Shown: positions 9,928 to 58,029, counted from the stretch's first letter. The stretch is DNA of 64,000 nucleotides from an uncultured Actinomycetes bacterium (GCA_963751565.1 CAVVVA010000002.1:198904-262903); one strand, 5' to 3'. Translations and numbers: made by a program. The notes: generated by a model from the sequence alone, not told the origin.

Positions 9928-10126
9928 AGACAGCCGAGGCCGAAGGGCCTGCGCAGTCCCGCCGGCGCGGGCGCGGGCGACGTGGCGGCGCCGGCGCCGG
10001 CGCCACGGATGATCTCCGTGGGCCGGGTGTAGACTCGCCCCGAACGCGACCGGCCGCCCGGCGCATGTTCGGCGATCGCCGCCGCGGGTACAGGAGACCC
10101 GAGGTCTGAAGCGAGACTGGGAGACG

Positions 10127-11368
10127 TTGATGACCGACGAGTTCGAGCACGACCAGCCAGGGCGCGAAAAGCCGGTCGAGGAGGAGCCCATGCCGAACGT
10201 GCCCGCGATACCCGTGCCGCCCGACGTGACCCGCGAGACGACCGGCGCGGCCGGCGCCGGAGCGCCGGCCGCGCCGGTCGCCGGACCCCTGACCGACGCC
10301 GACAAGGCGAAGGTCGCCGAGATCGCCGGCGCCGTCGATGTGACCGACGGCACCTCGGTCATCTCCTACGGCCTGCCCGCGCAGAGCCGCATCGCCACCT
10401 TTGCCGACTCGCTGCTGGGCGACGTGCGCAACAAGGACGCGGGCGCCGGCGGCGAGGCCCTGAACGAGCTGCTCAAGAAGGTCCGCGCGCTCGACATCGA
10501 CGCCCTCAGCCCGTCGGGCAAGACTCATATCCCGATCGTCGGGCGCTTCTCGAACGTCTTCAACCGCTTCGCCGCCAAGTACCAGAAGGTGGCCGGCAGC
10601 ATCGACCGCATCGTCGACGCCCTGGAACGTTCGCGCATGGGGCTGCTCAAGGACATGACCATCCTCGACAAGATGTTCGAGCTCAACCTCGAGTACCTGA
10701 AGCAGCTCGACGTCTACATCGCCGCCGGCGAGCAGGTGCTCGAGCAGCTGAACGCGGTGCGCCTGCCCGAGCTCGAGCTCGAAGCGCGCACCTCGGGCGA
10801 CCCCATGGCGGCCCAGCGCCTCGCCGACTTCCAGCAGGCCGTGACGCGCTTTGAGCGCCGCCTCCACGACCTGCGGCTGACGCGCATGATCGCCGTGCAG
10901 ACGGCGCCCCAGATCCGCCTGATCCAGGGCTCCGACCACGACCTGGTCGAGAAGATCCAGAGCTCGATCCTGACCACCGTGCCGCTCTGGAAGAACCAGA
11001 TCGTCATCGCCATCAGCCTCTACCGCCAGCAGAAGGCGCTCGAGCTGCAGCACCAGGTCAGCGACACCACGAACGAGCTGCTCGCCAAGAACGCCGAGCT
11101 GCTGCGCGACGGCCAGGCCAAGGTCGGCCGCGAGGTCGAGCGCGGCGTGGTCGACGTCGAGACGCTGCGCAAGGTCAACTCAGACCTGATCGCCACCCTC
11201 GAAGAGACCATCCGCATTCAGGACGAGGGCCGCCAGCGGCGCCTCCACGCCGAGGGCGAGATCGTCCAGCTCCAGGGCGAGCTGCGCCAGAAGCTGATCG
11301 AGCTGCGCGGCCAGGTGCCGCAGATCTCCCCGCCCGACGAGCCGCTGCTGCCCAGCGGGAACCGCTAG
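10127..11368 (+). CDS. telA: TelA-family toxic anion resistance protein
   Basis: Length and conserved coiled-coil blocks (...KDMTILDKMFELNLEYLKQLDVYIAAGE..., ...IRIQDEGRQRR...) typical of TelA/KlaA. Confidence 0.8.
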   Translation: MMTDEFEHDQPGREKPVEEEPMPNVPAIPVPPDVTRETTGAAGAGAPAAPVAGPLTDADKAKVAEIAGAVDVTDGTSVISYGLPAQSRIATFADSLLGDVRNKDAGAGGEALNELLKKVRALDIDALSPSGKTHIPIVGRFSNVFNRFAAKYQKVAGSIDRIVDALERSRMGLLKDMTILDKMFELNLEYLKQLDVYIAAGEQVLEQLNAVRLPELELEARTSGDPMAAQRLADFQQAVTRFERRLHDLRLTRMIAVQTAPQIRLIQGSDHDLVEKIQSSILTTVPLWKNQIVIAISLYRQQKALELQHQVSDTTNELLAKNAELLRDGQAKVGREVERGVVDVETLRKVNSDLIATLEETIRIQDEGRQRRLHAEGEIVQLQGELRQKLIELRGQVPQISPPDEPLLPSGNR

Positions 11369-43832: not shown

Positions 43833-44048
43833 TCAGCCGCCGGCGACGACCCGCCGGTGGTCGGCGCCCACGAGGGCGCGCAGAACCTCGATCTCGTCGA
43901 GCCTGCCCTCGGGCAGGTCATAGAACACGGCGAGTTGCCGGTGCTCCAGAGCGGCCGCCTTGGCACGAACGAGCAGCTCGTCGCGCTCAACGTACCGACC
44001 CTCTCTGAAGGCCTCGCGCACGACCCGTCTGGCATCGCGTGACAGCAT
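43833..44048 (-). CDS. hypothetical small protein
   Basis: ORF with ATG after GGAGGGGGGAG; no recognised family. Confidence 0.25.
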   Translation of the reverse strand: MLSRDARRVVREAFREGRYVERDELLVRAKAAALEHRQLAVFYDLPEGRLDEIEVLRALVGADHRRVVAGG

Positions 44049-44414
44049 CTCCCCCCTCCGGTCGCTTCGCCCGACCCACGGTTCTCTGTCGTACACCCGA
44101 TCGGTGGTTCCGCCAAGCGTTGCCGGCGCCGAGCCGCCCTGACACCGTTGGCCGCACCGGCCGCCGCAGGGAGAACCAAGGCTCCGTCATTCGAGCGTGC
44201 CGGGTCGGTGCGCACCTGGCCGTGCGCACCTGGGCGCGACGGCTCCGCGCCGCGCCCCGGCGCCCACCCGCGCGCACGAGAGCCCGATGAAAACGCTCGG
44301 GCGACGGGACTCACCGGCCAGCGGTTTGCCGGTGGGAATGGTATGGTCGCGACGACGAACGTGTCCGCCGCGGCCGCGCGGCGATCACCGTCCCAAAGAC
44401 GAAGTGAGGTGCGC

Positions 44415-45050
44415 ATGCTCACGCTCTACCAGGCCGAATGGTGCCCGTACTGCCACCGGGTGCGGCAGGTGCTCACCGAGCTCGGGCTGACGTACACGTG
44501 CGTCAACGTCCCGGTGCAGCGCGCCGATCGCACCCAGGTGCGCGAGCTGTCCGGGCAGGACGTCGTACCGGTGCTCAAGGACGGCCGCAAGGTCCTGGTC
44601 GGCTCCGACGAGATCGTCGCCCACCTGCGGGCCGGCTATCCACCGCCGGCCGACGCCGAAGCTCACGCCGAAGTCGGCCGCTTCCGCGTGGTGCTCGAGC
44701 TCGACGAAGGGCCTGAGGAGGCGCTCGCGCTGCTCCGCGAGGTCTTCGCGACCGCCGACATCCGCATCATCTCCGAGACACGCGGCCACGAGCTCGGCGC
44801 CGACCACCTGCCCGAAGGCTACGTGCTGGTGCAGGCCGCCGCCGTCTGGGCCATGGAGCAGGCGGCCGCGTTCGACCCCACGGTGCCGGCCGCGACCTCG
44901 TTCTCGCTGGCCGTGTTCTCCGCCGACGGCGGCAGCGCGATCGCCGTCACGCGTCCCTTCGCCGAAGCCTGGCTCTACGGCGACCCCGCCTTGAGCAAGC
45001 TCACCATGGCGGTGACGCAGCGCGTCTACGAGGCGCTCGAGAAGCTCTGA
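44415..45050 (+). CDS. glutaredoxin-like domain (CPYC) fused to an uncharacterised C-terminal domain
   Basis: ATG at 44415; N-terminal LYQAEWCPYCHRVRQVLTELG thioredoxin-fold motif. Confidence 0.6.
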   Translation: MLTLYQAEWCPYCHRVRQVLTELGLTYTCVNVPVQRADRTQVRELSGQDVVPVLKDGRKVLVGSDEIVAHLRAGYPPPADAEAHAEVGRFRVVLELDEGPEEALALLREVFATADIRIISETRGHELGADHLPEGYVLVQAAAVWAMEQAAAFDPTVPAATSFSLAVFSADGGSAIAVTRPFAEAWLYGDPALSKLTMAVTQRVYEALEKL

Positions 45051-45115
45051 CCCGTGCGGGGGCGGCGGGGGCGGGCGGCCTTGCGGCCGCCCGCCCCCGC
45101 CGCCCCGCCGCCCCC

Positions 45116-45925
45116 CTATTCCCACTCAAAGAGCGCGGCCGCCATGAGGGCCGTCGCCACGCCGATGCCGCCTACGATCGTCAGCTGCAGCAGGCTGACG
45201 CCGAAACCGTTCCAGGGATCGACCAGCGAGATCACCACGTGGTAGAGCGGCAGCGCCTTGCCGAGAGCCAGCATCCAGGCGGGCAGCAGGTCGAGCGGCG
45301 CGCTGGTGCCCGAGATGAACATCATGATGAACCAGATCAGCAGACCGACGCCCTGGGCGGCGCGCGCCGTGGGCGCGAGCGAGGCGATCAGCACGCCGAG
45401 CGCCGAGAAGGCGAACACGGCCACCACGAAAGCGATGGCCACACCGCCGACCGAAGCCGGCGCGACCACGCCGTAGGCGAAGACGCCGAGCACGCCGATG
45501 ACCAGGCCGCCGACCAGGCAGATGCCGACGCCCACGAGGAACTGCGAGCCCAGGAGCACCCACTCCGACATTCCGGAAGCGCGGAAGCGCCGCAACACGC
45601 CCCGTTCGCGATAGGTCGACAGATGCACCGGCAGCGAGACGGTGCCGATCGAGGCGATCACGAGGCCGATGTAGCCGGGCACGTACCAGTCCATCATCTT
45701 CAGGCCGGCGTAGGCGCCGCGGTCCATGTGCTGGCCGCCGAAGATGCCGCCCAGCAGCACCAGCACGAGCACCGGGAAGGCAAACGAGAAAACGAGGGTC
45801 ACCGGTTCGCGGACCAGCAGCTTGATCTCGATCCAGGTCATGCGCAGCAGGACCTTGACGAAGGTCGCGGCCCAGCTCCCCCGTCTCGCAGCCGTTCCGC
45901 GCGACCGTGACGGCATCTCGCTCAT
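45116..45925 (-). CDS. ABC-2 type transporter permease (DrrB-like)
   Basis: Six TM segments; start overlaps the ATPase gene stop (ATGA). Confidence 0.75.
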   Translation of the reverse strand: MSEMPSRSRGTAARRGSWAATFVKVLLRMTWIEIKLLVREPVTLVFSFAFPVLVLVLLGGIFGGQHMDRGAYAGLKMMDWYVPGYIGLVIASIGTVSLPVHLSTYRERGVLRRFRASGMSEWVLLGSQFLVGVGICLVGGLVIGVLGVFAYGVVAPASVGGVAIAFVVAVFAFSALGVLIASLAPTARAAQGVGLLIWFIMMFISGTSAPLDLLPAWMLALGKALPLYHVVISLVDPWNGFGVSLLQLTIVGGIGVATALMAAALFEWE

Positions 45926-46878
45926 TCGGCCATGACGTGTCCGGTGAGGCTGAGGAAGACGTCTTCGAGGCTCGGCGCCTCGACATGAAGGTCGGCCGGC
46001 GCCATGTCCCGGGCGACGAGGGCCGCGGCGACGTGCGCCAGCACGGCGCCGCGGCCCTCGACGACCACGCGCGGGCCCTCGCGGCGCACCGCCTCGACGT
46101 GGCGCACGCCCTCGAGGAACGATACGTCGGTGGCCTCGGTGTGGAACACCACCCGCTGTCCGGCGGCGTGCGAGGCGATCAGGCCTCGTGGGCTGTCGAG
46201 CGCCACGACCTTGCCCCTGAACATGACCGCGATGCGGTCGCAGAGCCGCTCGGCCTCGTCCATGAAGTGCGTCACCAGCACGACGGTCGAGCCCCGTTCA
46301 CGAATCTCGCGGATGAGATCCCAGGCGACGCGGCGGGCGGCCGGGTCGAGACCGGTGGTCATCTCATCTAAGAACACGACCTCGGGTCCGTTGACCACCG
46401 CCAGGGCGACGAAGAGCCGCTGCCGCTGACCGCCCGACAGCGAGTGGAAGGCCGCCCGGCTCTTGTCGGCGAGCCCCCATTCGGCCATGACGTCGCGCCA
46501 GTCGCGCCCGCCGGGCGTGAGCGAAGCGAACAGCTCGAGCGCCTCCCAGACGCGGATGTGGTCGGGCAGGGCCGACTCCTGGAGCTGGCAGCCGATGCGC
46601 CGCCGCAGCTCGCGCGACTGGCGCGCCGGATCGAGCCCGAGCACCGCGATCGCCCCGCCGTCGGGCTGGCGCAGGCCCTGCAGGCATTCGACGGTGGTCG
46701 TCTTGCCGGCGCCGTTGGGGCCGAGCAGCCCGAAGATCTCGCCGCGCGCTACGGCGAAGGTGGCGTCGCGCAGGGCGGTGAACCCGCGGTAGGACTTCTG
46801 CACGTGGGACGCGGTGATGACGGCCTCGCGGCCGTCGAGGTCGCGAAGATCGGCTCGGCGCGCCATAGCGTTCGCCAT
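45922..46878 (-). CDS. ABC transporter ATP-binding protein (DrrA-like)
   Basis: Walker A GPNGAGKTT, signature LSGGQRQR, Walker B VVFLDE. Confidence 0.9.
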   Translation of the reverse strand: MANAMARRADLRDLDGREAVITASHVQKSYRGFTALRDATFAVARGEIFGLLGPNGAGKTTTVECLQGLRQPDGGAIAVLGLDPARQSRELRRRIGCQLQESALPDHIRVWEALELFASLTPGGRDWRDVMAEWGLADKSRAAFHSLSGGQRQRLFVALAVVNGPEVVFLDEMTTGLDPAARRVAWDLIREIRERGSTVVLVTHFMDEAERLCDRIAVMFRGKVVALDSPRGLIASHAAGQRVVFHTEATDVSFLEGVRHVEAVRREGPRVVVEGRGAVLAHVAAALVARDMAPADLHVEAPSLEDVFLSLTGHVMAE

Positions 46879-46905
46879 GGTAGCACGGCGGACCGGGATC
46901 GGCGC

Positions 46906-47901
46906 CTACGGCAGCAGTCCCTCGCCGCCCCACACGCCGAGCTTGCGAAAGCGTTCGCGGCGCAGCACGCGGCGCTCGCGCGGCATGACCGCGTCGAGCT
47001 CGGCCAAGGCCTCGGCGATGGCGTCGTGGACGCGTCGGGCGGCGCCCTCGGGATTGAGGTGGGCGCCGCCGCGCGGCTCCTCGATCACCCGATCGATGAT
47101 GCCGAGCGGCAGGAGCTGCGAGGCCGTCGGCCGCAGCGCCTCGGCGGCCTGCGGCGCGAACTCGGCGTCGCGCCACAGGATCGCGGCGCAGCCCTCGGGC
47201 GAGATGACCGAGTAGGTCGCGTTCTCCTGCATGAGGACGCGGTCGGCGACGGCGAGGGCGAGGGCTCCGCCCGAGCCGCCCTCGCCGATCAGCGTGGCGA
47301 CGACCGGCACGCTCAGGCGCGCCATGGTCAGCATGGTCTCGGCGATCGCCCGCGCCTGCCCGCCCTCTTCGGCGGCCACACCCGGATAGGCCCCCGGCGT
47401 ATCGACGAAGGTGAGCACCGTCAGGCGGTGTCGTTCGGCCAGGGTGAAGAGCCGCTGAGCCTTGCGGTAGCCCTCGGGCTTGGCCATCCCGAAGCTGTGC
47501 TCCGTTTGCTCATCGAGCGTGCGGCCCTTCTGGTGGCCGACCACGACCACGGCGCGGCCGTCGAACCAGCCCAGCCCGCCGATCACGGCCCGGTCGTCGG
47601 CCCGCAGGCGGTCGCCCTTGAGCTCCTCGAAGCCCTCGATGAGAAACTCGATGTACTCGCTGGTGCGCGGACGATCCTTGTTGCGCGCGATCTGGACGGT
47701 CAGCCAGGTGTCGTGGCGGCGGCGTTCATGCCGGCGGCTCTTCAGGAGCCCCTGGAGCCGGTCCGCCTCCTCCGAGAGGTTGACTCCCGGGATTCTTGAA
47801 AGCCGCCGCAACTCTTGCAGACGCTGCCCGAGCCAGCCTTCGCGTGCGGCCGCCTCTGGATCGTGATGCTCGTCGTCGTTCGAGTCCGTCAGGTTGACCA
47901 C
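46906..47901 (-). CDS. accA: acetyl-CoA carboxylase carboxyltransferase subunit alpha
   Basis: Strong similarity throughout (…FGMAKPEGYRKAQRL…FVDTPGAYPG…ISPEGCAAILW…). Confidence 0.9.
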   Translation of the reverse strand: MVNLTDSNDDEHHDPEAAAREGWLGQRLQELRRLSRIPGVNLSEEADRLQGLLKSRRHERRRHDTWLTVQIARNKDRPRTSEYIEFLIEGFEELKGDRLRADDRAVIGGLGWFDGRAVVVVGHQKGRTLDEQTEHSFGMAKPEGYRKAQRLFTLAERHRLTVLTFVDTPGAYPGVAAEEGGQARAIAETMLTMARLSVPVVATLIGEGGSGGALALAVADRVLMQENATYSVISPEGCAAILWRDAEFAPQAAEALRPTASQLLPLGIIDRVIEEPRGGAHLNPEGAARRVHDAIAEALAELDAVMPRERRVLRRERFRKLGVWGGEGLLP

Positions 47902-48721
47902 CTCCCTTCAGCAGACGGAGGTAGTTGGCCACCTTGTCCTTGAGCTCGACGCGCGGCACGATCGCGTCGACGTGGCCGAGCAGCAGGTTGCGCTCGGCGC
48001 TGCCGAAGTCGGCGGGAAGCTGCTCACCCGTGGTCTGCGAGATCACCCGCGGACCCGAGAAGTACAGCAGGGCGCCCGGTTCGGCCACGCAGATGTCGGC
48101 CAGGCTGACGAAGCTCGCCACTACGCCGCCGGTGCAGGGGTCGGCCATCACCGCGACGAACGGCACGCGGGCGTCGTTCAACACGTCGACGGCACAGGTG
48201 GTCTTGGCCATCTGCATGAGCGACAGGGCGCCCTCCTGCATGCGGGCGCCGCCCGAGCTGGCCACGGCCACGAGCGGCCGGCTCTCTTCGGCGGCGACGG
48301 CGGCGGCGCGCCAGAGCCTCTCGCCGACGACGCTGCCCATGCTGCCGCCCATGAAGCCGAAGTCCATGACGGCCAGCACGCAGGGGGTGGAGCCGATCGT
48401 GGCCGTGCCGGCCAGGATCGCCTCGGTCAACCGGCTTGCGCCCTGCGCCTCGCGCACCCGTTCCGGGTAGGGCTCGAGGTCGATGAAGTCGAGCGGGTCG
48501 AGCGTACGCAGGTGGCCCCAGGACTCGACGAACGTGCCGTCGTCGGCAAGCTGGGCGATGCGCTCACGAGCGCCGATGCGCTCGTGAAAGCCGCAGGCGG
48601 GGCAGACCGACAGGTTCTCCTTGACCGCGGCCGGGTCGTGATCCGAAGCGCACTTGGGGCAGACCCAGCGCCGCTCTTGCGGCCCGTTCTCCCGCCGGGC
48701 GATCTCGACCGTGACGGTCAT
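47726..48721 (-). CDS. accD: acetyl-CoA carboxylase carboxyltransferase subunit beta (N-terminal zinc ribbon)
   Basis: CPKCASD…CPACGFH zinc ribbon; the carboxyltransferase core (…DFGFMGGSMGSVVGE…); the last about 60 codons are Arg-rich and overlap accA out of frame. Confidence 0.8.
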   Translation of the reverse strand: MTVTVEIARRENGPQERRWVCPKCASDHDPAAVKENLSVCPACGFHERIGARERIAQLADDGTFVESWGHLRTLDPLDFIDLEPYPERVREAQGASRLTEAILAGTATIGSTPCVLAVMDFGFMGGSMGSVVGERLWRAAAVAAEESRPLVAVASSGGARMQEGALSLMQMAKTTCAVDVLNDARVPFVAVMADPCTGGVVASFVSLADICVAEPGALLYFSGPRVISQTTGEQLPADFGSAERNLLLGHVDAIVPRVELKDKVANYLRLLKGGGQPDGLERRRASRSRGGRTRRLARAASARVAAAFKNPGSQPLGGGGPAPGAPEEPPA

Positions 48722-49968
48722 CAGCCGTAGCGCCGAAAGACGAGCGTCGCGTTGTGGCCGCCAAAGCCGAAGGAGTTGGAGGCGGCCACGTTCACAGTCG
48801 CCGGACGCGCCGTGAGCGGCACGTAGTCGAGGTCGCATTCCGGGTCGGGAACGGTCAGGTTGATGGTGGGTGGAATGACGCCGCGGTCGATGGTCAGCAC
48901 CGAGATGATCGCCTCGAGCGCACCGGAGCCGCCCAGGCAGTGACCGATCATCGACTTCGTCGAGGAGATCGCGACCTTGCGGGCGTTCTTTTCGCCCAGG
49001 GCGATCTTGATCACGCGGGTCTCGGCGATGTCGCCGGGCGGCGTGGAGGTGCCGTGGGCGTTGATGTAGTCGATCTCGGCAGGGTCGATGCCGGCCTCGT
49101 CGATGGCCATGCGCATGGCGCGCGCCTGCGTCAGTCCGGTCTCGTCGGGCAGCGTCAGGTGAAAGGCGTCGGAGCTCATGCCGTAGCCGACGAGCTCGGC
49201 GTGGATCGTCGCCCCCCGCGCCTCGGCGTGGCCGAGCTCCTCGAGCACCATGATGCCGGCGCCCTCGCCCATGACGAAGCCGTCGCGGTCGCGGTCGAAC
49301 GGCCGGCTGGCCTTTTCGGGCTCGTCGTTGCGGGTCGACAGAGCCCGCATGGCGGCAAACGCCGTGAGGCCGACGTTGCAGATCGGCGCCTCGCTGCCGC
49401 CGGCGAACATGGCGTCGGCCGCGCCGCGGCGGATCATCTCGAAGGCGTCGCCGATGCCGTTGGTGCTCGCCGCACAGGCCGTGCAGACGGTGGACAGCGG
49501 GCCCTTGGTGCCCAGCCCCAGCGAGATCTGGGCGGCGGCCATGTTGGGGATCATCATCGGGATGAACAGCGGGCTCATGCGGTCGTTGCCCTTGGTCCAC
49601 ATCGTGCGCAGCTGATCCTCGAAGGTGCCCAGGCCGCCGACGCCGCTGGCGACCACGGCGCCGACCCGGTCGGGCTCCTTGCTCACGTCGAGCCGGGAGT
49701 CGTCCTGGGCCATGATGGCCGCGGCCAGCGCGTACTGGGCGAACGGGTCCATGCGGCGCTGGGTGCGGCGGTCCATGTACTCGAGAGGGTCGAAGTCGCG
49801 GACCTCGGCGGCAATGCGCACCGGCAGCGACGAGGCGTCGAAATTGTGGATGAGCCCCACGCCCGACTGACCGGCGATCAGGCGGCTCCAGAAACGGTCG
49901 ATGTCGCAGCCGAGCGGCGACACCACACCCATGCCGGTGACGACGACTCGTCGGGGATCGTTGCTCAT
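48721..49968 (-). CDS. fabF: beta-ketoacyl-ACP synthase II
   Basis: KAS II active-site blocks (…[10 protein letters not shown]…, …[11 protein letters not shown]…, …GHCLGGSG…); ATG after AAGGAG; its stop overlaps the accD ATG (TGATG). Confidence 0.9.
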
Positions 49969-50019
49969 GCAGGATCGCTCCTTAAGGATCGGCCGGACCA
50001 CCGCGGCCTTTGCCACCTG

Positions 50020-50775
50020 TCAGGTGCCGAGGCCGCCGTCGACCGGGAGTGTGCACCCGGTAATGTACCGCGACAGCGGCGATGCGAGAAACAGCACTGC
50101 GTTGGCGACGTCGGACGGACGGCCGATGCTCCGCAGCGGCGTCGCGTCGACGATCGCCTGCCGCACCTCGGCGGCCAGCGCCTGGGTCATGGCGGTGTCG
50201 ATGTAGCCGGGAGCCACCGCGTTGACGCGGATGGTGCGCGGCCCGAGCTCCTTGGCCAGCGACTTGGTGAGGCCGATGATGCCCGCCTTGGCGGCCGCGT
50301 AGTTGGCCTGGCCGGCGTTGCCGCGGCGCCCCACCACGCTCGAGATGTTGATGATCGAGCCCTCGCGGCGGCGCAGCATCTTGCGGGCCGCCGCCTTGGA
50401 GACCAGAAACGTGCCGCGCAGATGGGTGCGGATGACGCCGTCGAACTCGTCGGGGGTCATGAGCATCGCGACGTTATCGCGCGTGATGCCGGCGTTGTTG
50501 ACCACGATGGAGAGCGGACCAAGCTCGGCCTCGACCCGGTCGACGATCTCGGCGACGCTCTGCTCGTCGCCGACGTCGCCCATCACGCACAAGGCGCCGA
50601 CGCCCATCGCTTCGATCTCCGCGACCAGGGCCTGGCAGACATCCTCGCCGGCGTAGTCGTTGACGGCGACCGCGGCGCCGGCCGCGGCGAGCGTCAGCGC
50701 GATCTCGCGCCCGATGCCGCGGCCGGCGCCGGTCACGAGCGCGATCTTGCCGCTCAGGTCGATCGTCGTGGTCAT
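50020..50775 (-). CDS. fabG: 3-oxoacyl-ACP reductase (SDR family)
   Basis: TGAGRGIGREIA Rossmann motif, NNAG, the YxxxK catalytic dyad (YAAAK). Confidence 0.9.
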   Translation of the reverse strand: MTTTIDLSGKIALVTGAGRGIGREIALTLAAAGAAVAVNDYAGEDVCQALVAEIEAMGVGALCVMGDVGDEQSVAEIVDRVEAELGPLSIVVNNAGITRDNVAMLMTPDEFDGVIRTHLRGTFLVSKAAARKMLRRREGSIINISSVVGRRGNAGQANYAAAKAGIIGLTKSLAKELGPRTIRVNAVAPGYIDTAMTQALAAEVRQAIVDATPLRSIGRPSDVANAVLFLASPLSRYITGCTLPVDGGLGT

Positions 50776-51707
50776 CGGTCCGCCTCTCCGCCGGTGGCCC
50801 AGCCGCCGCCGAGCGCCGTCGCGAGCGAGTCGATGTCGCCCGCGGTCGCCGTGGCGGCCGAGCCGTCGATCCGTTTGACGAGGCCGGCGAGCACGGCCCC
50901 CGGTCCGACCTCGAGATACGCATTGTACCCCTCGCCCGACAGCCGGCGTATCGACTCCTCGAATCGCACCGGCGACACCAGCTGCCGGGCGAGCAGCGCC
51001 GGAAAGCCGTCGTGCTCGAACTCGGCGCTGCAGGTCGAAAAGAAGGCCGGCGCCGGCGCGGCCCACGACGTCGCCGCGAGCGGGCCGTGCAGGGCCTCGG
51101 CGGCCGGCGCCACGAGCGGCGAGTGGAACGCCCCGCTCACCGCGAGGCGCACCACGCGCCGCGCGCCGGCCGCCTTCGCCGCCTCTTCGAAAGCCTCGAG
51201 TGAGCTCTCGGCGCAACTCACCACGACCTGGCCCGGACAGTTGAAGTTGGCCGGCCAGACGGAGTCGAGGCCGGCGCACAGCCCTTCGACCGCGCCGGCC
51301 TCGAGACCGAGCACGGCCACCATGCCGCCCGGGCGGCGCGCGGCGGCGGCGGCCATGGCCTCGCCGCGCGCCTTGACGAGCGTCAGCGCGTCGCGAAAGC
51401 CCAGGGCGCCGGTGGCCACGAGAGCGCTGTACTCGCCCAGGCTGTGGCCGAGCGCCACGTCGAAGGCAAAGCCGCCGTCGCGCAGCACGCGCAGCGCGGC
51501 CACCGAGTGCGCGAGCAGCGCCGGCTGGGCGATCTCGGTGCGGGAGAGCTGCTCGGGCGATCCCCCGCGGCAGACGCCCGTGAGATCGTAGCCCAGCACG
51601 TCGCTGGCCTCGTCGAAGGCGTCACGGGCGATGGCGAAGCTGTCGCAGAGATCGCAGCCCATGCCGGCGGCCTGCGACCCTTGACCGGGGAACAGGACCG
51701 CGATCAC
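50772..51707 (-). CDS. fabD: malonyl-CoA:ACP transacylase
   Basis: FPGQGSQ and GHSLGEYSAL active-site motifs; ATGA overlap with fabG. Confidence 0.9.
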   Translation of the reverse strand: MIAVLFPGQGSQAAGMGCDLCDSFAIARDAFDEASDVLGYDLTGVCRGGSPEQLSRTEIAQPALLAHSVAALRVLRDGGFAFDVALGHSLGEYSALVATGALGFRDALTLVKARGEAMAAAAARRPGGMVAVLGLEAGAVEGLCAGLDSVWPANFNCPGQVVVSCAESSLEAFEEAAKAAGARRVVRLAVSGAFHSPLVAPAAEALHGPLAATSWAAPAPAFFSTCSAEFEHDGFPALLARQLVSPVRFEESIRRLSGEGYNAYLEVGPGAVLAGLVKRIDGSAATATAGDIDSLATALGGGWATGGEADR

Positions 51708-51744
51708 GGGCGCTTCCGACCGGGCGCCAGCGGGCCCATGGCCG

Positions 51745-52752
51745 TCACAGCTCCCACCTGGTCAGGCACGAACCCCAGGTGAGCCCCGCGCCGAAGCCGA
51801 CGATCAGCAGCCTGTCGCCCTTCTTCAGGCGGCCCTGTTCCATGGCGTCGTTCAGGCAGAGCGGGATAGATGCGCAGGAGGTGTTGCCGAACCGATCGAG
51901 GTTCCAGAAGACCTGTTCGTCGCTGAAGCCGAGCTGCGCGGCGACCTTCTCGATGATGCGCAGGTTGGCCTGGTGCGGCACGAACAGGTCGATCTCGGCG
52001 GCCGACACGCCGGCGTCGTCGAGCGTCTTCTGGCACGACTCGACCACCCGCCGCGTGGCAAAGCGGTACACCTCGCGACCGTTCATGCGCAGGAAGTGCT
52101 GGCGCTCGTCGACCGTTTCGTGACTGGCCGGCAGCCTGGTGCCGCCGGCCGGCATGCTGAGGTAGGGAGCGCCGGTGCCGTCGTTGCCCAGATCGAAGGC
52201 GAAGATCGAGCCGTTGTCGCTGGGCCGCACGAGCACGGCCCCGGCGCCGTCGCCGAACAGCACGCACGTGCTGCGGTCCCGCCAGTCGAGCGCCTTCGAA
52301 ATGGCCTCGGCCCCGGTCACGAGCACGTTGTCGTAGATGCCGGCCGACACGAACGCGGTGGCCGTGGCGAGACCGTAGACGAACCCGGTGCAGCCCGACT
52401 GCACGTCGAACGCCCCGGCGTTCAGGGCGCCGATGCGCTCGGCGATGACCGACGCCGTGGCCGGAAACGGCATGTCGGGCACGAGCGACGTGCTGATCAC
52501 GAGGTCGATGTCCTCGGCGTGGTGGCCGCTGCGAGCCAGCAGGTCGGCGGCCGCGGCGACGGCGAGGTCGGAGGTCGCCTGGTCGGGCCGGCACACCCGC
52601 CGCTCGCGGATGCCGGTGCGCGACGAGATCCACTCGTCGGAGGTGTCGATGGTGCGGGCCAGCTCGGCGTTGGTCAGGACGCGTTCGGGGATGAAAACGC
52701 CGAGCGCCGCGATCTTCGCTCCGTGAACGAGCCCCCGCCGGAGGCCGATCAA
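51745..52752 (-). CDS. fabH: beta-ketoacyl-ACP synthase III
   Basis: KAS III blocks (…SGCTGFVYGL…, …HQANLRI…, …GNTSCASIPL…); a TTG start is inferred from the TTGA overlap with the fabZ stop (no ATG/GTG available). Confidence 0.8.
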   Translation of the reverse strand: MIGLRRGLVHGAKIAALGVFIPERVLTNAELARTIDTSDEWISSRTGIRERRVCRPDQATSDLAVAAAADLLARSGHHAEDIDLVISTSLVPDMPFPATASVIAERIGALNAGAFDVQSGCTGFVYGLATATAFVSAGIYDNVLVTGAEAISKALDWRDRSTCVLFGDGAGAVLVRPSDNGSIFAFDLGNDGTGAPYLSMPAGGTRLPASHETVDERQHFLRMNGREVYRFATRRVVESCQKTLDDAGVSAAEIDLFVPHQANLRIIEKVAAQLGFSDEQVFWNLDRFGNTSCASIPLCLNDAMEQGRLKKGDRLLIVGFGAGLTWGSCLTRWEL

Positions 52753-53246
52753 CGGTCCTGCCCCGCGCCGGGGCTCAGTCGCGCCCGGCCGGACGCCGTC
52801 TCGTCGGCGTCGGCCATCGCGAACATGAGCTCGCCGCGGCAGGCCGTGTCGCCATCGACGGTGGCGCTCACCCTGCCGCGGCCCACCGCGCTGCGGGCCA
52901 TCGTGACCTCGACCTCGAGGTCGAGCGTGTCGCCCGGGGTGACGACGCGCTTGAACCGCACCTTGTCGATGCCGGCGAACAGGATCAGCTTGCCCCTGTT
53001 GGCCGGATGCGACAGCGCGGTCACGACGCCCGCCTGGGCGAGCGCCTCGACGATCAGCACGCCGGGCATGACGGGGTTGCCGGGAAAGTGGCCGGCGAAC
53101 CACCAGTCGTCTGCGCGGACGAGCCGGCGGGCGTGGCAACGCTCGCCCGGAATGAGCTCGACGACCTCGTCGAGCAGGAGGAACGGGTGACGGTGAGGGA
53201 TGAGCTCCTCGATCTGCTCGCGGGTGAGGGCGACGCCGGCGTTCAT
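52749..53246 (-). CDS. fabZ: 3-hydroxyacyl-ACP dehydratase
   Basis: Hotdog-fold motifs (…HRHPFLLLDEV…FAGHFPGNPVMPGVL…); ATG after GGTGGAGG; ATGA overlap with the anti-sigma stop. Confidence 0.85.
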   Translation of the reverse strand: MNAGVALTREQIEELIPHRHPFLLLDEVVELIPGERCHARRLVRADDWWFAGHFPGNPVMPGVLIVEALAQAGVVTALSHPANRGKLILFAGIDKVRFKRVVTPGDTLDLEVEVTMARSAVGRGRVSATVDGDTACRGELMFAMADADETASGRARLSPGAGQDR

Positions 53247-53644
53247 GCCTCCACCTCGTCCTCGTCGACCTTGCGACCGTACCTGCGCTGCAGGCCGATC
53301 ACCACCGCAGCCAGCGCCAGACCATAGTAGGCATAGCGCCTGACGCGGCGCGGCACGCGACCGGGCAGCACGCCGCCGGTCGCGGTCGAGAGCGCCCGCT
53401 CGAGCGCCGACGGTTCGGGCCGCGCCTCGAGGGCCGTCATGACGCGGTCGACAAAGCCGGCCGGCACGTCGACCGTGACCTCGCGCGTGGCCTGCAGCAC
53501 GCTGCGCGCCGCCGCGATCCCCTGCAGCTCGGCCGCGCAGTCGCCGCACAGGCTCAAGTGCCTCTGGAACTCGACGACCTGGCCGTCGTCGAGCTCGCCG
53601 TCGATGTACCGCTGGATGACCTCGCGGCACGAAACGCAGTCCAT
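53243..53644 (-). CDS. anti-sigma factor (zf-HC2 type, single TM)
   Basis: CxxC…H…CxxC zinc motif (MDCVSCREV…HLSLCGDCAAEL) and a C-terminal TM helix; 1-nt overlap with the sigma factor stop. Confidence 0.7.
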   Translation of the reverse strand: MDCVSCREVIQRYIDGELDDGQVVEFQRHLSLCGDCAAELQGIAAARSVLQATREVTVDVPAGFVDRVMTALEARPEPSALERALSTATGGVLPGRVPRRVRRYAYYGLALAAVVIGLQRRYGRKVDEDEVEA

Positions 53645-54222
53645 CAGGCCTCCTCGTCGAATGCGCCGCCGGCCTGCAGGCGCAGCCGCAGCGAGGTGCG
53701 GCCGCGGTGCACGCAGGCCTTGACCGTGCCGAGCGGCCGGTCGAGGGCGTCGGAGATCTCGCCGTAGCGCAGCCCATAGAGGTCGCGCAGGACGAGCGGG
53801 AGGCGATAGTCGGGAGGCAGGTCGGCGAGCGCCCTCATGACGCGCGCATAGCCGTCGCGCCGCAGTACGTCGGCGACGGGGTCGGCGACGGGTTCGGGCA
53901 CGTCGGGCAACGCGCCGTACTTCCGGTAGCGGCGCTGGTAGTCGATGATCGCGTTCAGCGCCAGACGAAAGAACCACGTCGTGAACGTGGAGTACCCGCG
54001 AAACCCGCTGAGCTTCTGATGCAGCCGCAGGAACGCCTCCTGCGACGCGTCTTCGGCGTCGACGTGGTTGCCGAGCAGGTTGTAGGCCATCGTGTAGACC
54101 ATGCCCTGGTACCTCTCCACGATCCTGCGAAACGCCTCCCGGTCGCCCGCCGCCGCGGCCGCGACGTCGTGCGGGCTCGGCTCGGGGAGATCGGTGTGGT
54201 CGGCGAAGTTAGACGGCGTCAT
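53644..54222 (-). CDS. ECF (sigma-70 family group 4) RNA polymerase sigma factor
   Basis: Region 2 (…DAEDASQEAFLRLH…) and region 4 (…YRLPLVLRDLYGLRYGEISDALDRPLGTVKA…). Confidence 0.85.
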   Translation of the reverse strand: MTPSNFADHTDLPEPSPHDVAAAAAGDREAFRRIVERYQGMVYTMAYNLLGNHVDAEDASQEAFLRLHQKLSGFRGYSTFTTWFFRLALNAIIDYQRRYRKYGALPDVPEPVADPVADVLRRDGYARVMRALADLPPDYRLPLVLRDLYGLRYGEISDALDRPLGTVKACVHRGRTSLRLRLQAGGAFDEEA

Positions 54223-54363
54223 CGCGCAAAAGGTTGCAGGGTGGTCCTTCTGGGTCGGGCGGCCGGCCGCGGGAGCGCCGGCCGATCGTGCCTGGTGGGG
54301 GATGAGTCTACACCTCGCGAGCGGCGCGCCGTCACGCGCGACGCCGCCTTGCGCCGCCCTGTC

Positions 54364-54975
54364 CTATCCCGTGCGCCCGCGCTGCGCGCCCGGCTGCGTC
54401 AGCCGCTTGGCGAACACGAGCTGCTCCTTCTCGAGGTCGTAGCCGCGGCGCCCGTAGAAGAGGTGCGAGACGCGCCGCTCCCGCCGCGAGCGGACGCGGA
54501 GCTGCACGACGCCGCGCTCGGCGGCCCACGTCTCGACCGCGTCCAGGAGCGCCGTGGCGACGCCCCGTCGCCGCGCGGCGGCCGCCACCACGAGGCCGCC
54601 GAGCTCGACGAACGGCTCGCTCACGAGCAGCCGCCGTTCGAGGCCCTGCACGAAGCCGACCACCTCGCCGGCGATCTCGGCAACGAAGATCTGGCTCGCC
54701 CCGTCGCCGGAAAGCGTCGTCACCCGCTGCTCGGCTTCACCGGCCGAGACTTCGTAGCCCAGCTCGCCGCTGAGGCGGGCGAGGGCGGGCGCGTCGCCCG
54801 CCCTCGCCGCCCTTACGGCGATGTTTTCGCTTCTGCCCCGCGACCTGTTCGCACCCGCTTCGCCCGGCGCTCCCGCCGCGTTCACGCCCGCTTCGCCCGG
54901 CGCTCCCGCCGCACTCACGCCCCCACCTGCGGTGCCGCCGGCGCTCACGTCACGACCGCCCGTGCAGGTGCTCAT
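54364..54975 (-). CDS. GNAT-family N-acetyltransferase with a repetitive N-terminal extension
   Basis: Acetyl-CoA-binding motif (…QLRVRSRRERRVSHLFYGRRGY…); start uncertain; the N-terminus is coded by a 33-bp tandem repeat (54866-54931, AAGAPGEAG x2). Confidence 0.65.
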   Translation of the reverse strand: MSTCTGGRDVSAGGTAGGGVSAAGAPGEAGVNAAGAPGEAGANRSRGRSENIAVRAARAGDAPALARLSGELGYEVSAGEAEQRVTTLSGDGASQIFVAEIAGEVVGFVQGLERRLLVSEPFVELGGLVVAAAARRRGVATALLDAVETWAAERGVVQLRVRSRRERRVSHLFYGRRGYDLEKEQLVFAKRLTQPGAQRGRTG

Positions 54976-55894
54976 GTTCTGGTTGGTCTTCGGTGTGCCG
55001 CTCCTTGCCGGGCGGGTGCGCGTGCGGATGCGAGTGCAGCAGCGCGCCGTGATGGTGAGCGTGCTCGTGGATGAGATTGACCGAGAGCAGCAGGTCACGG
55101 TCGGCGAGCACGTCGGCGAGCCGCCCGTCGGCCGCGGGGCGGTGGTCTTCGCCGAGGACCACCGCCCGGTCGACGAGCCGCTCGAGGACGTCGAGCTGGT
55201 GGGTGGCCACGACGATCGTCTTGCCGCTGTCGTGAAGCTGCTCGAGCAGCTCGATCAGCCACTCCTGGGTGCGCGGGTCGAGGCCGTTCGTGGGCTCGTC
55301 GAGCATCAACACCTCGGGGTTGATCGAGAGCACCGACGCCAGGGCGACCTTCTTCTTCTCGCCGCCGCTCAGGTTGTACGGCGCTCGCTTCGCCAGCGCG
55401 GCAAGGCCGAGCATGCCCAGCGTGTCGTCGACGCGCGCCAGGATCTCGTCGCGCGGCAGATCGAGGTGCAGCGGCCCGAAGGCGACCTCGTCGCGCACGG
55501 TGGGGTTGAAGAGCTGAGCGTCGGCGCTCTGAAAGACCATGCCGACGCGCCTGCGAAAGCGCTGCGCCGTCGCTTCGTCTCTGAGCCCGCCGTCGTCGAT
55601 GCGCTCACCGAAGGCCTCGACCGTGCCCTGGGTCGGCCGGGCGAGACCGGCGAGGACCTTGAGCAGGGTCGACTTGCCGGAGCCGTTGGCGCCGAGAATG
55701 GCGAGGCGCTCGCCGCGGTCGATCTGCAGATCGACCGCGGCGAGCGCCTCGACCCCGGGGGCGTACTCGTAGCCGACGCCGGCGAGGCAAAACAGGACGG
55801 GCGCGGGTTCGCGCTCGCCGTCGGGCGCACCGCCGTTGGGGGCCCTGCCGTCGTGCGGTGTGCGGGGCGGCGGTGCAACCGCCGGATCGGCCAT
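54950..55894 (-). CDS. cbiO: ECF-transporter ATPase (CbiO/NikO-type) with a His-rich C-terminal tail
   Basis: Walker A GANGSGKST, LSGGEKKK, LMLDEPT; C-terminal HEHAHHHGALLHSHPHAHPP…HEHLH; start overlaps the cbiQ stop (TGATG). Confidence 0.85.
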   Translation of the reverse strand: MADPAVAPPPRTPHDGRAPNGGAPDGEREPAPVLFCLAGVGYEYAPGVEALAAVDLQIDRGERLAILGANGSGKSTLLKVLAGLARPTQGTVEAFGERIDDGGLRDEATAQRFRRRVGMVFQSADAQLFNPTVRDEVAFGPLHLDLPRDEILARVDDTLGMLGLAALAKRAPYNLSGGEKKKVALASVLSINPEVLMLDEPTNGLDPRTQEWLIELLEQLHDSGKTIVVATHQLDVLERLVDRAVVLGEDHRPAADGRLADVLADRDLLLSVNLIHEHAHHHGALLHSHPHAHPPGKERHTEDQPEHEHLHGRS

Positions 55895-56697
55895 CAGTGC
55901 GTCCCCGCGGTGAGCTCGAACCAGACGAGGGCGACGAGGCCCGCAGCCATGACCGCGCTCCACACGAGGTCGAGCCGCCGCAGGCGCCAGGTGCTCAGCG
56001 TGCGCGCGTCGCCTGAGTAGCCGCGCGAGATCATCGCCAGGTAGACCTGCTCGCTCGTCGCCTGGGACTTGCCGAACACGGCCGCCACCGTTCCCCCCAG
56101 GAAGTGGCGGTCCTCGCGGTCCGAGACGCGGCCGACGAGCCGGCTCATGCGGGCGATCGCCATGTCCTGCACCAGCCTGACCAGCGTGAAGACGTAGCGA
56201 TAGGCGACCACCAGCACGAAGACAAAGCCGCGCGGCACGCCCACGGCGCGCATCGCCTTGAGCAGTTCGGCCCATGGGGTCGTGAGCGTCAGCAGCACGC
56301 AGAACGAGACGACCGTCGTGACCCGCAGCACGAGGCGCGCGAAGGCAAACAGACCGGGCGTCGTGACCGCGAGCCTGCCCGGCAGCGGCCAGAAGGGGGC
56401 GCCGTGCGACCACAGCGTCAGCACGGCGTGCCCCGGGGTGACGATGTTGAAGATCGCCGGCGCCATGATCGCCGCGGTGAACAGCGGGATGAACAGCCAG
56501 GCCCGAACGGCGAACTGCCGCAGGCCGATGCGCGAGGCCGGCACGAGGGCAACCGCCACCGCCAGCAGCACGAGCAGCACCGTCATGCGCGTGGCCAGGG
56601 CGGTGGTCACGATGAGCGCCAGCAGACTGACGAGCTTGACACGCGGATCGAGGCGCTGCAGGAGCCCCGGACGACGCGCCAGTTCGTCGGCGACCAT
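55894..56697 (-). CDS. cbiQ: ECF transporter transmembrane (T) component CbiQ
   Basis: Five-TM pattern of the CbiQ family; start within 56697-56913 uncertain. Confidence 0.75.
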   Translation of the reverse strand: MVADELARRPGLLQRLDPRVKLVSLLALIVTTALATRMTVLLVLLAVAVALVPASRIGLRQFAVRAWLFIPLFTAAIMAPAIFNIVTPGHAVLTLWSHGAPFWPLPGRLAVTTPGLFAFARLVLRVTTVVSFCVLLTLTTPWAELLKAMRAVGVPRGFVFVLVVAYRYVFTLVRLVQDMAIARMSRLVGRVSDREDRHFLGGTVAAVFGKSQATSEQVYLAMISRGYSGDARTLSTWRLRRLDLVWSAVMAAGLVALVWFELTAGTH

Positions 56698-56925
56698 GGC
56701 GCGCTCGACCCAGGCGGCCAGCGTGCCGAGCAGCCGGTCGGTGAACAGGCGCCGTGAGCGGCGCGGGCGGGCCGGCTGCGCCGGCCCGCCCGCGCCCTCC
56801 GCCGGCGCCAGCAGCCACGCCGGCACCCCATCGCTCGGACGGGGTGGGCCGCCGTGAGCGGACGGACCTGCGGCATCGGCCACGAGGGGACTCACCGTGT
56901 GGTCAGCTCGCATAGCGAGCCGCGC

Positions 56926-57993
56926 TCAAAGTGCGCCGTCCACGGGCGGCGGGCCGACCGGTGTCTGAGCCGCCACCTGTGTCCGAGCCGCCACCTGCGT
57001 CCGGGCCACCCGATGCCGCAGCCTGATCACCAGCCAGACGATCGCCGAGAGCACTGCCACGCCGACCAGCGCGCTCACGATGTAGGAGACGACGGTCCAC
57101 ACACCACTCGCCCCGCTCCAGCCGTAGTCGGGCAGCAGGCCGCGCCAGTGTCCGCCTAGGCGGGCGAAGCCCTGGGGCACGTAGCCAACGCGTTTGCGCA
57201 GCTCGCCTGAGCCCCACTCGGCAAACGCGCCGCCGCCGGCGATCAGCCCCAGCGGCACGGCCGCGATGAACACGGCCAGCAGGGCGACGATCCAGCGACG
57301 CCGCACCGGTCTCGTGCCGGCGCCGGCCTCGAACAGCTCGGGGCTCTGGCGCCTGAGCACGGCAAAGACGCCGACCGTGAAGGCCGCTTCGACGGGACCC
57401 ACGAGCAGGGCGTGCGAGCCGACCATCGCCGGAAACGTCGTCTTCAAGCCGTAGGGGAAGTACTGGGCGATGCCGTTGACGGTGTGCAACAGGGGCTGGA
57501 TGCCGAGCTCGATGCTGTTGAGAAAGGCGGCCGCCACGAGGCCGCACCAGGCGCCCACGCCGGCCGCCCAGAGGCGCCGCGACGACTGCAGGTCGCTGCC
57601 GCCGGCCACCAGGCGATAGACGGCGTAGCCGGCGTAAGGCATGACGATCGCCATGTTCAGGACGTTGATGCCCAGCGTCAGGACGCCCCCGTCGCCAAAG
57701 AAGAAGGCCTGGATGACCAAGGCCGCGCTGACCGCCAGGCAGGCGATGTCGGGTCCGGCGATCACGGCGATCAGCACCGCCCCGACGGCGTGCGCCGTAG
57801 TGCCTCCCGCCACGGGCACGTTGAGCATCATGACGAGAAACGAAAATGCCGCGCCGAAGGCCAGCACGGGGATCATCCTGGGCTCCGAGAGGAGCTGCCG
57901 GGTGCGCCGGTTGGCGCGATACCAGATCGGCACGGTGACCGCCCAGCCGGCGGCCAGCGTCTCCGGCCCCAGATAGCCGTCGGGTATGTGCAT
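56926..57993 (-). CDS. cbiM: ECF transporter substrate-capture component CbiM/NikM fused to a CbiN/NikN-like C-terminal segment
   Basis: Canonical MHIPDGYL N-terminus; extra C-terminal TM region (…LPDYGWSG…TVVSYIVSALVGVAVL…). Confidence 0.85.
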   Translation of the reverse strand: MHIPDGYLGPETLAAGWAVTVPIWYRANRRTRQLLSEPRMIPVLAFGAAFSFLVMMLNVPVAGGTTAHAVGAVLIAVIAGPDIACLAVSAALVIQAFFFGDGGVLTLGINVLNMAIVMPYAGYAVYRLVAGGSDLQSSRRLWAAGVGAWCGLVAAAFLNSIELGIQPLLHTVNGIAQYFPYGLKTTFPAMVGSHALLVGPVEAAFTVGVFAVLRRQSPELFEAGAGTRPVRRRWIVALLAVFIAAVPLGLIAGGGAFAEWGSGELRKRVGYVPQGFARLGGHWRGLLPDYGWSGASGVWTVVSYIVSALVGVAVLSAIVWLVIRLRHRVARTQVAARTQVAAQTPVGPPPVDGAL

Positions 57994-58029
57994 GGCTTTC
58001 CCTGTTCCTGCCTGGTTGCCGGCCTGTCG

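Follow-up and report, generated by a model that had tools for sequence, protein, structure and literature searches.

Most of what is known of how bacteria control fatty-acid synthesis concerns repressors (FapR, FabR, FabT and FasR) and a few extracytoplasmic function (ECF) sigma factors acting in trans, and the canonical fab cluster, as in E. coli and B. subtilis, is ordered plsX-fabH-fabD-fabG-acpP-fabF. The locus described here lies in a 64,000-nt stretch of DNA (the window; CAVVVA010000002.1:198904-262903) and consists of nine consecutive minus-strand genes, in the order ECF sigma, zf-HC2 anti-sigma, fabZ, fabH, fabD, fabG, fabF, accD and accA, which form the type II fatty-acid synthase and acetyl-CoA carboxylase (ACC) carboxyltransferase operon of an uncultured peat-soil Thermoleophilia bacterium. 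A full set of initiation and elongation genes and the ACC carboxyltransferase are here physically fused to a sigma/anti-sigma switch. The order fabH-fabD-fabG-fabF and an equivalog-level similarity are shared with the canonical cluster; unlike that cluster, the operon has no acpP and no plsX, fabZ stands in front, accD-accA stand at the end and regulatory genes head the whole. In the reading preferred here, to which a probability of roughly 60% is given, the operon would be transcribed at a basal level from a housekeeping promoter, and its own sigma, acting at a start site within the coding frame of the sigma gene, would increase expression of the anti-sigma and fatty-acid genes.

That ECF sigmas can control fatty-acid synthesis is already known, and hard-wiring in cis is what differs here. 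In B. subtilis, a sigma-W promoter inside fabHa drives fabF (PMC3875570, PMC3498285). The window locus resembles the B. subtilis system in its SigW-like ECF sigma, its zinc-binding membrane anti-sigma and a putative AAC-N16/17-CGT promoter placed inside an upstream coding sequence, and differs from it in that sigW-rsiW form a separate operon there and only fabF is boosted (PMC3875570, PMC3498285), whereas in the window the fab/acc operon itself opens with the sigma and anti-sigma cistrons and its putative internal promoter lies within the sigma gene. In P. aeruginosa, acc and fab genes are induced by SigX, and one fabH paralogue is predicted to share an operon with an ECF sigma and anti-sigma (fabH3-PA14_21550-PA14_21560), as fab genes do here; there the sigma pair follows one accessory fabH, and at the fatty-acid synthesis (FAS) operons no ECF consensus was found (PMC3875570), whereas in the window the pair stands ahead of the complete fabZHDGF-accDA genes and a clear bipartite motif is present. 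The Streptomyces SigR-RsrA pair likewise has a zinc-binding (ZAS) anti-sigma, which begins on the stop of the sigma gene and has its own ribosome-binding site; rsrA also has a promoter inside sigR, by which the inhibitor is kept in excess, and the pair has two promoters and N-terminal sigma isoforms, as the window locus may have (PMC5472188). Unlike the window locus, Streptomyces has its autoregulatory promoter upstream, where it yields a longer sigma, its RsrA is soluble and no biosynthetic genes are fused to the pair (PMC5472188). M. tuberculosis sigE, the closest solved relative, resembles the window sigma in combining a housekeeping promoter with an ECF-type promoter inside the ORF (open reading frame), both of them putative in the window, and in its N-terminal extension; it differs in that its P3 promoter is read by SigH, shorter isoforms are made from non-canonical starts, rseA heads a separate operon and no fab genes are linked (PMC10027907). 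The putative co-transcription of an envelope-stress-type sigma pair with fab/acc genes had been called an unusual regulatory wiring when the sequence was first read; as there are precedents for ECF sigmas controlling fab genes, what would be unusual is the form of the wiring, a fusion in cis, rather than the principle.

The bipartite ECF-type motif TGCAAC-N17-CGTCTAAC was found as one perfect copy in the window. The sequence-only reading had predicted an ECF promoter upstream of 54222, and an AAC-N17-CGT motif does exist but straddles the sigma start codon. An AAC-N16/17-CGT motif, as would be expected of autoregulation, is present at the operon's own head, conserved and unique to the site, but overlaps the start. 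Related loci (numbered L) were fetched for comparison. The motif was invariant from 100% to 45% sigma identity, the sole change being C to T in the -35 box, and across 1.26 Mb of fetched loci, both strands included, it occurred only at the sigma 5' end; no second promoter copy before other genes was found in the window or in those loci. Two loci (L013, 9953-10014, and L015, 9953-10014) carried a second complete motif just upstream, with identical boxes, 17-nt spacing and an unrelated spacer, and since the whole of this copy precedes the sigma ATG, ordinary positive autoregulation could arise from it in those two species. In L047 and L048 the whole motif was inside the sigma ORF. Residue 3 of the sigma varied (P/S/T/A) while its codon was always NCG, by which the CG of CGTCTAAC was preserved. 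As the motif is invariant, unique to its site, duplicated with a new spacer and accompanied by a codon 3 held at NCG, it is taken to be a DNA-level element. The -35 base also tracked the sigma-4 recognition helix, KAC or KAS occurring with GCAAC and KVM with GTAAC (one exception).

The spacer between the GNAT acetyltransferase gene and the sigma gene was unalignable between species save for two conserved islands, the GGTGTAGACT element and the bipartite motif. The GGTGTAGACT element (P1) is a putative housekeeping-type promoter by its resemblance to a -10 box, and in distant orthologs GGTGTA(G/C)ACT preceded the ECF -35 box by 41-113 nt. A consensus scan for sigma-70-type promoters gave none. 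Pairing of the GGTGTAGACT element with CGTCTAAC was considered and rejected (only 5 bp, broken by a TACACT variant), as was RNA structure in the 5' leader, where fold stability was no better than shuffled (z = -0.22); no Rfam families were found in 44000-56000. A second exact GGTGTAGACT was present elsewhere in the window at 10026-10035 (+), intergenic and ~95 nt upstream of a plus-strand ORF starting near 10127, which suggests that it may be a recurring promoter element in this genome.

In the proposed circuit, the TANNNT-type promoter GGTGTAGACT would provide basal transcription of all nine genes, the sigma included. Upon release of the sigma by the anti-sigma, with redox at the zinc site or a membrane cue at the anchor as candidate signals, the operon's own sigma would read TGCAAC-N17-CGTCTAAC. 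Since the spacer separating the -35 box from the -10 box holds the sigma start codon, transcripts from this promoter would begin inside the sigma reading frame and would carry the anti-sigma, fabZHDGF and accDA without the full-length sigma start. Activation would enlarge the capacity for fatty acids and malonyl-CoA and raise the inhibitor at the same time, in a self-limiting loop tying membrane-lipid synthesis to the sigma/anti-sigma switch. The conserved layout suggests that membrane-lipid synthesis may be wired directly to a stress switch in these organisms. A stronger form of the proposal is offered only tentatively: that the ECF promoter is placed deliberately round the sigma start, so that sigma-dependent transcripts would make the anti-sigma and the fab/acc set and no full-length sigma, in a negative-feedback-only circuit with bulk membrane-lipid synthesis as its sole direct output and a tail-anchored zinc anti-sigma as its sensor, class-wide in abundant soil Actinomycetota. 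Thermoleophilia, including Gaiellales, are among the commonest soil Actinomycetota and to our knowledge are almost unstudied. Should the internal promoter work, the operon would offer a simple, testable ECF circuit without positive autoregulation and a direct handle on how membrane synthesis is matched to stress in these organisms.

Gene order was compared only in loci long enough to show it, with sigmas 53-100% identical to that of the window. The order GNAT-sigma-anti-sigma-fabZ-fabH-fabD-fabG-fabF-accD-accA-ABC ATPase-ABC permease was shared by 12 GTDB species representatives, whose sigmas are 56-96% identical, and in a large family of sigmas 53-67% identical, collected by protein search, sigma through accA was kept in every long-enough locus; the linkage of the sigma pair to fabZ, singled out in the sequence-only reading, thereby held in the representatives and in more distant loci (sigma 54-66% identical). 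Locus L041 was without both the GNAT gene and the ABC transporter. Since these flanking genes are not always there, the conserved core is the nine genes from sigma to accA. In a second lineage, for which the name Gaiellales was taken from the protein search, an ECF sigma 37-38% identical was followed directly by fabZ-fabH-fabD-fabG-fabF-accD-accA, and no anti-sigma gene was found either between sigma and fabZ or downstream. The linkage of a sigma with the fab/acc genes holds in Gaiellales, the anti-sigma part of it does not, and the sigma-fab linkage so spans at least two orders of Thermoleophilia. The Gaiellales sigmas (L060, L061 and L101) had a conserved N-terminal extension of ~35 residues (MFPQ...LSDVVL), and in the same three loci a birA or biotin-protein ligase-like gene, identified by reading of the translated ORF only, was divergent upstream (L060, 1709-3065). 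In L018 and L039 several operon genes were broken into pieces across reading frames, for which assembly indel errors are suspected over pseudogenes.

Several observations weigh against the proposed circuit. Its own sigma as the reader of the ECF motif is suggested solely by the position of the motif; the covariation between the -35 base and sigma-4 may reflect perhaps only one or two evolutionary events; and the sigma-dependent transcript would have ~560 nt of untranslated 5' sequence, which is unusual and possibly prone to premature termination. In Gaiellales, where no ECF motif is conserved, a TAGAAT, TACAAT or TAGACT -10 element was found 9-11 nt ahead of the sigma start and seems to be all that drives the operon, from which it follows that an ECF promoter is not needed by the fab genes in every lineage. 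A candidate motif in L060 (GCAAC-N17-CGTCTGA, inside the sigma 5' end) was rejected as chance or relic, as it was not kept in L061 or L101. The Gaiellales -10 element next to the sigma start would also suit a constitutive operon read from a housekeeping promoter, in which the sigma, alone or along with its anti-sigma, is a mere passenger whose output is scaled to lipid synthesis and whose targets lie elsewhere; the conservation of GGTGTAsACT upstream in the window clade agrees with this, and essential FAS genes require basal expression anyway. Such an arrangement leaves the strict conservation, the duplication in two species and the site-uniqueness of the ECF motif unexplained, and no other copy of the motif marks an external regulon in the 64-kb window or the flanks, a small sample. 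It is considered improbable.

The sigma protein contained Sigma70_r2 (residues 34-100) and Sigma70_r4_2 (127-178) and nothing else in Pfam, and scored 92.9 bits against TIGR02937 (sigma70-ECF; cutoff 42.9). Its best NCBIfam match was SigW (NF007223, 115.7 vs 209 bits; TIGR02948, 106.8 vs 243.1 bits), and the protein is SigW-like on these scores, not a SigW orthologue. The main text of the ECF reclassification paper makes no mention of fatty-acid contexts, and no ECF group assignment was taken from there. Matches to the closest solved structures, M. tuberculosis SigE and B. subtilis SigW, began at residue 24-29, so that the first ~20-23 residues constitute an N-terminal extension. Changes in codons 8-19 were mainly at third positions, a conserved serine switched between AGC and TCN codons, and no in-frame start was present upstream of the sigma ATG at 54222; from this pattern and the lack of an upstream start, translation starts at the embedded ATG. 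The late beginning of the structural matches would also suit a sigma isoform without the ~20-residue extension, made from the internal-promoter mRNA at a non-canonical start (e.g., codon 20), which would give positive autoregulation and two isoforms. Precedents are the internal sigma-H-dependent promoter of M. tuberculosis sigE, which yields an mRNA with non-canonical translation starts (PMC10027907), and the GTC start used by Streptomyces sigR (PMC5472188). Codon 20 is GTC in the window and ATC, CTG, CTC or GTG in relatives, but it has no preceding Shine-Dalgarno sequence and is CTC, a poor near-cognate start, in three species, and in most species the stretch from codon 6 to codon 34 has no in-frame ATG, GTG or TTG. 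Shine-Dalgarno-like AGG codons, conserved in the window clade, had pointed to initiation at M41, which was rejected as a general mechanism because distant orthologs have CGG, CGA or CGC instead. Synthesis of such a shorter sigma is regarded as unlikely, and initiation at the embedded ATG, with internal transcripts that carry no full-length sigma, is preferred.

In the window the anti-sigma is encoded adjacent to the sigma and starts at its stop, an arrangement not found in Gaiellales. Its zf-HC2 domain scored 33.5 bits (Pfam; cutoff 22.2), and C3, H29, C33 and C36 were invariant in 14 orthologs, which makes a complete ZAS zinc site (H-x3-C-x2-C plus an upstream Cys). A C-terminal hydrophobic segment (YGLAxxAVxIG) was kept in the same number of orthologs and was followed by a short basic tail, from which the protein is predicted to be anchored with almost no extracytoplasmic domain. 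The RsrA equivalog score was 29.6 against a cutoff of 62.5; by this measure the protein is not an RsrA orthologue. The gene is preceded by its own Shine-Dalgarno sequence (GAGGAGG in the window), and one was always present in relatives.

Junctions between the nine genes comprised five start/stop overlaps of 1 or 4 nt, one overlap of 176 nt and two gaps (37 and 51 nt). Short overlaps were present at sigma/anti-sigma (TGATG), anti-sigma/fabZ (ATGA), fabZ/fabH (TTGA, with the fabH TTG on the fabZ stop), fabD/fabG (ATGA) and fabF/accD (TGATG); the 176-nt overlap, out of frame, is that of accD with accA; and the gaps precede fabD, which starts at GTG (37 nt), and fabF (51 nt, holding a strong AAGGAG Shine-Dalgarno sequence). 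The description of the operon as fully translationally coupled was overstated, since these two gaps interrupt the overlaps, and the accompanying list gave seven junctions for nine genes: its short overlaps were as named, the fabH-fabD gap was omitted, and the fabG-fabF gap is 51 nt and not 50, although it indeed holds no acpP. The TTG start proposed for fabH was borne out, because the orthologous position is GTG (a GTGA overlap) in 11 of 11 relatives with a readable junction. The anti-sigma/fabZ overlap was 4 nt in every relative, which leaves no intergenic room there for a terminator or separate promoter. Short overlaps kept across species are not due to chance; in L013 and L015 three of them, sigma/anti-sigma and fabF/accD included, had opened into small gaps with their own ribosome-binding sites. 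The fabH-fabD gap ranged from 7 to 73 nt between species and was not conserved. Terminator-like sites were in no excess over shuffled expectation (5 found, 3.5 expected). In the fabG-fabF gap a stem-loop (GGCCG-N8-CGGCC, 49991..50008, -) precedes the AAGGAG Shine-Dalgarno sequence; its five base pairs were kept in 10 species without compensatory change, and no U-tract follows it in the window, a U-run being found only in L014. A role as a regulatory RNA is not favoured, for want of covariation and of a U-tract; the stem-loop could serve in RNA processing, in transcript stability or in weak attenuation, and so divide sigma-to-fabG from fabF-accDA.

Gene calls were made from a listing of ORFs and reading of the sequence, with Pfam and NCBIfam equivalog cutoffs, and the identities and coordinates first given for the nine genes were confirmed (Table 1). 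FabZ, FabH, FabD, FabG, FabF and AccA were all above their equivalog cutoffs and AccD was not; AccD has a Cys4 zinc ribbon (CPKC...CPAC), and its TIGR00515 match covered residues 14-272. The G+C content of the window was 65-74%. The window sigma protein was present in identical sequence on metagenome contigs, and sigmas 81-96% identical were found in metagenome-assembled genomes labelled Thermoleophilia, Actinomycetes or Actinomycetota, bog and palsa samples among them.

Table 1. Coordinates (window positions) of the operon genes, the candidate promoter elements and the adjoining transporter genes.
Feature	Coordinates	Strand	Description
P1, GGTGTAGACT	54305..54314	-	Conserved -10-like element; TAGACT fits TANNNT; ~83 nt upstream of sigma ATG
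ECF-type bipartite motif, TGCAAC-N17-CGTCTAAC	54208..54238	-	Sigma start codon (54222-54220) in spacer; -10 box = codons 3-5
sigma	53644..54222	-	ECF (group 4), 192 aa, SigW/SigE-like; Pfam Sigma70_r2, Sigma70_r4_2
anti-sigma	53243..53644	-	Class I, zinc-binding (ZAS) type, 133 aa; Pfam zf-HC2
fabZ	52749..53246	-	3-hydroxyacyl-ACP dehydratase; NCBIfam NF000582, 162 bits vs cutoff 113
fabH	51745..52752	-	Ketoacyl-ACP synthase III; NCBIfam NF006829, 409 bits vs 249; TTG start
fabD	50772..51707	-	Malonyl-CoA:ACP transacylase; TIGR00128, 291 bits vs 260.9; GTG start
fabG	50020..50775	-	3-oxoacyl-ACP reductase; TIGR01830, 307.8 bits vs 297.75
fabF	48721..49968	-	Ketoacyl-ACP synthase II; TIGR03150, 610 bits vs 493.75
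accD	47726..48721	-	ACC carboxyltransferase beta; TIGR00515, 289.8 bits, just below cutoff 317.45
accA	46906..47901	-	ACC carboxyltransferase alpha; NF004344, 382 bits vs 357; Pfam ACCA residues 24-322
ABC ATPase	46878-45922	-	Pfam ABC_tran; accessory, outside conserved core
ABC-2 permease	45925-45116	-	Weak DrrB-family matches (NCBIfam); accessory, outside conserved core

Partner genes were sought by tblastn with four acyl carrier proteins (ACPs), FabI, PlsX, AccB and AccC as queries. Nothing credible for acpP, plsX, fabI, accB or accC was found in the 64-kb window, and none of the related loci fetched had an acpP, plsX, fabI or accBC at up to ~10 kb from the operon. The absence of acpP between fabG and fabF and of plsX, as stated in the sequence-only reading, was in this way upheld for the window and the ~10-kb flanks of relatives, and the genome must carry the genes for ACP, enoyl reductase and AccB/AccC at other sites. 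The absence of acpP, fabI, plsX and accBC from operon and flanks in every lineage, together with a DrrB-like ABC-2 exporter that follows in many loci, would fit a second, specialised lipid set rather than housekeeping FAS II, with a product possibly exported by the adjacent transporter. This is thought very unlikely, as the five Fab proteins and AccA exceed the equivalog cutoffs of housekeeping enzymes, no polyketide synthase, tailoring or dedicated carrier-protein genes are present, the operon occurs in every relative examined, and the transporter is missing in L041 and Gaiellales and has a promoter-like element of its own.

The last ~58 codons of accD overlie the beginning of accA in another reading frame (47726-47901), and in all close relatives the accD stop fell 173-176 nt into accA. 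Within the overlap, sequence change follows the accA coding frame, synonymous accA changes altering the Arg/Gly/Pro-rich tail of AccD, which by this pattern looks unselected. A frameshifted accD-accA fusion was rejected, since relatives keep the accD stop and selection acts on the accA frame, which makes this a true, passive long overlap. AccA has 331 amino acids, of which all but the first 23 and last nine fall within the Pfam ACCA match, and public automatic gene calls shorten it to 226 amino acids because of the long accD overlap; correction of this truncation by gene callers is the immediate practical result for annotation. The annotated accA GTG lies 176 nt inside accD, and the true start may be codon 4, which is ATG, TTG or CTG in relatives and has GGGAGG 8 nt upstream.

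Downstream of accA, 'GTGCTACCATGG' was conserved within an otherwise variable 27-nt gap before the ABC ATPase gene. The sequence TGCTACCAT (46885-46877, -), before the ABC ATPase, fits an extended -10 element (TGnTAnnnT), so that an own promoter for the transporter is possible; it may be near-leaderless, with the start at the second ATG (46866). Neither L041 nor the Gaiellales loci had the transporter downstream of accA.

Within the N-terminal region of the GNAT acetyltransferase ORF, a 33-bp tandem repeat was found (window 54847-54922; 2.3 copies, 90% matches), which encodes repeated AAGAPGEAG units. Upstream of this gene, at ~55000-58000 (-), are genes for CbiM with PDGLE, CbiQ and an ABC ATPase, of the cobalt/nickel-type energy-coupling factor transporters, and for a Fur-family regulator; these cobalt/nickel transporter and Fur-family genes were upstream in close relatives and were not beside the operon in more distant ones.

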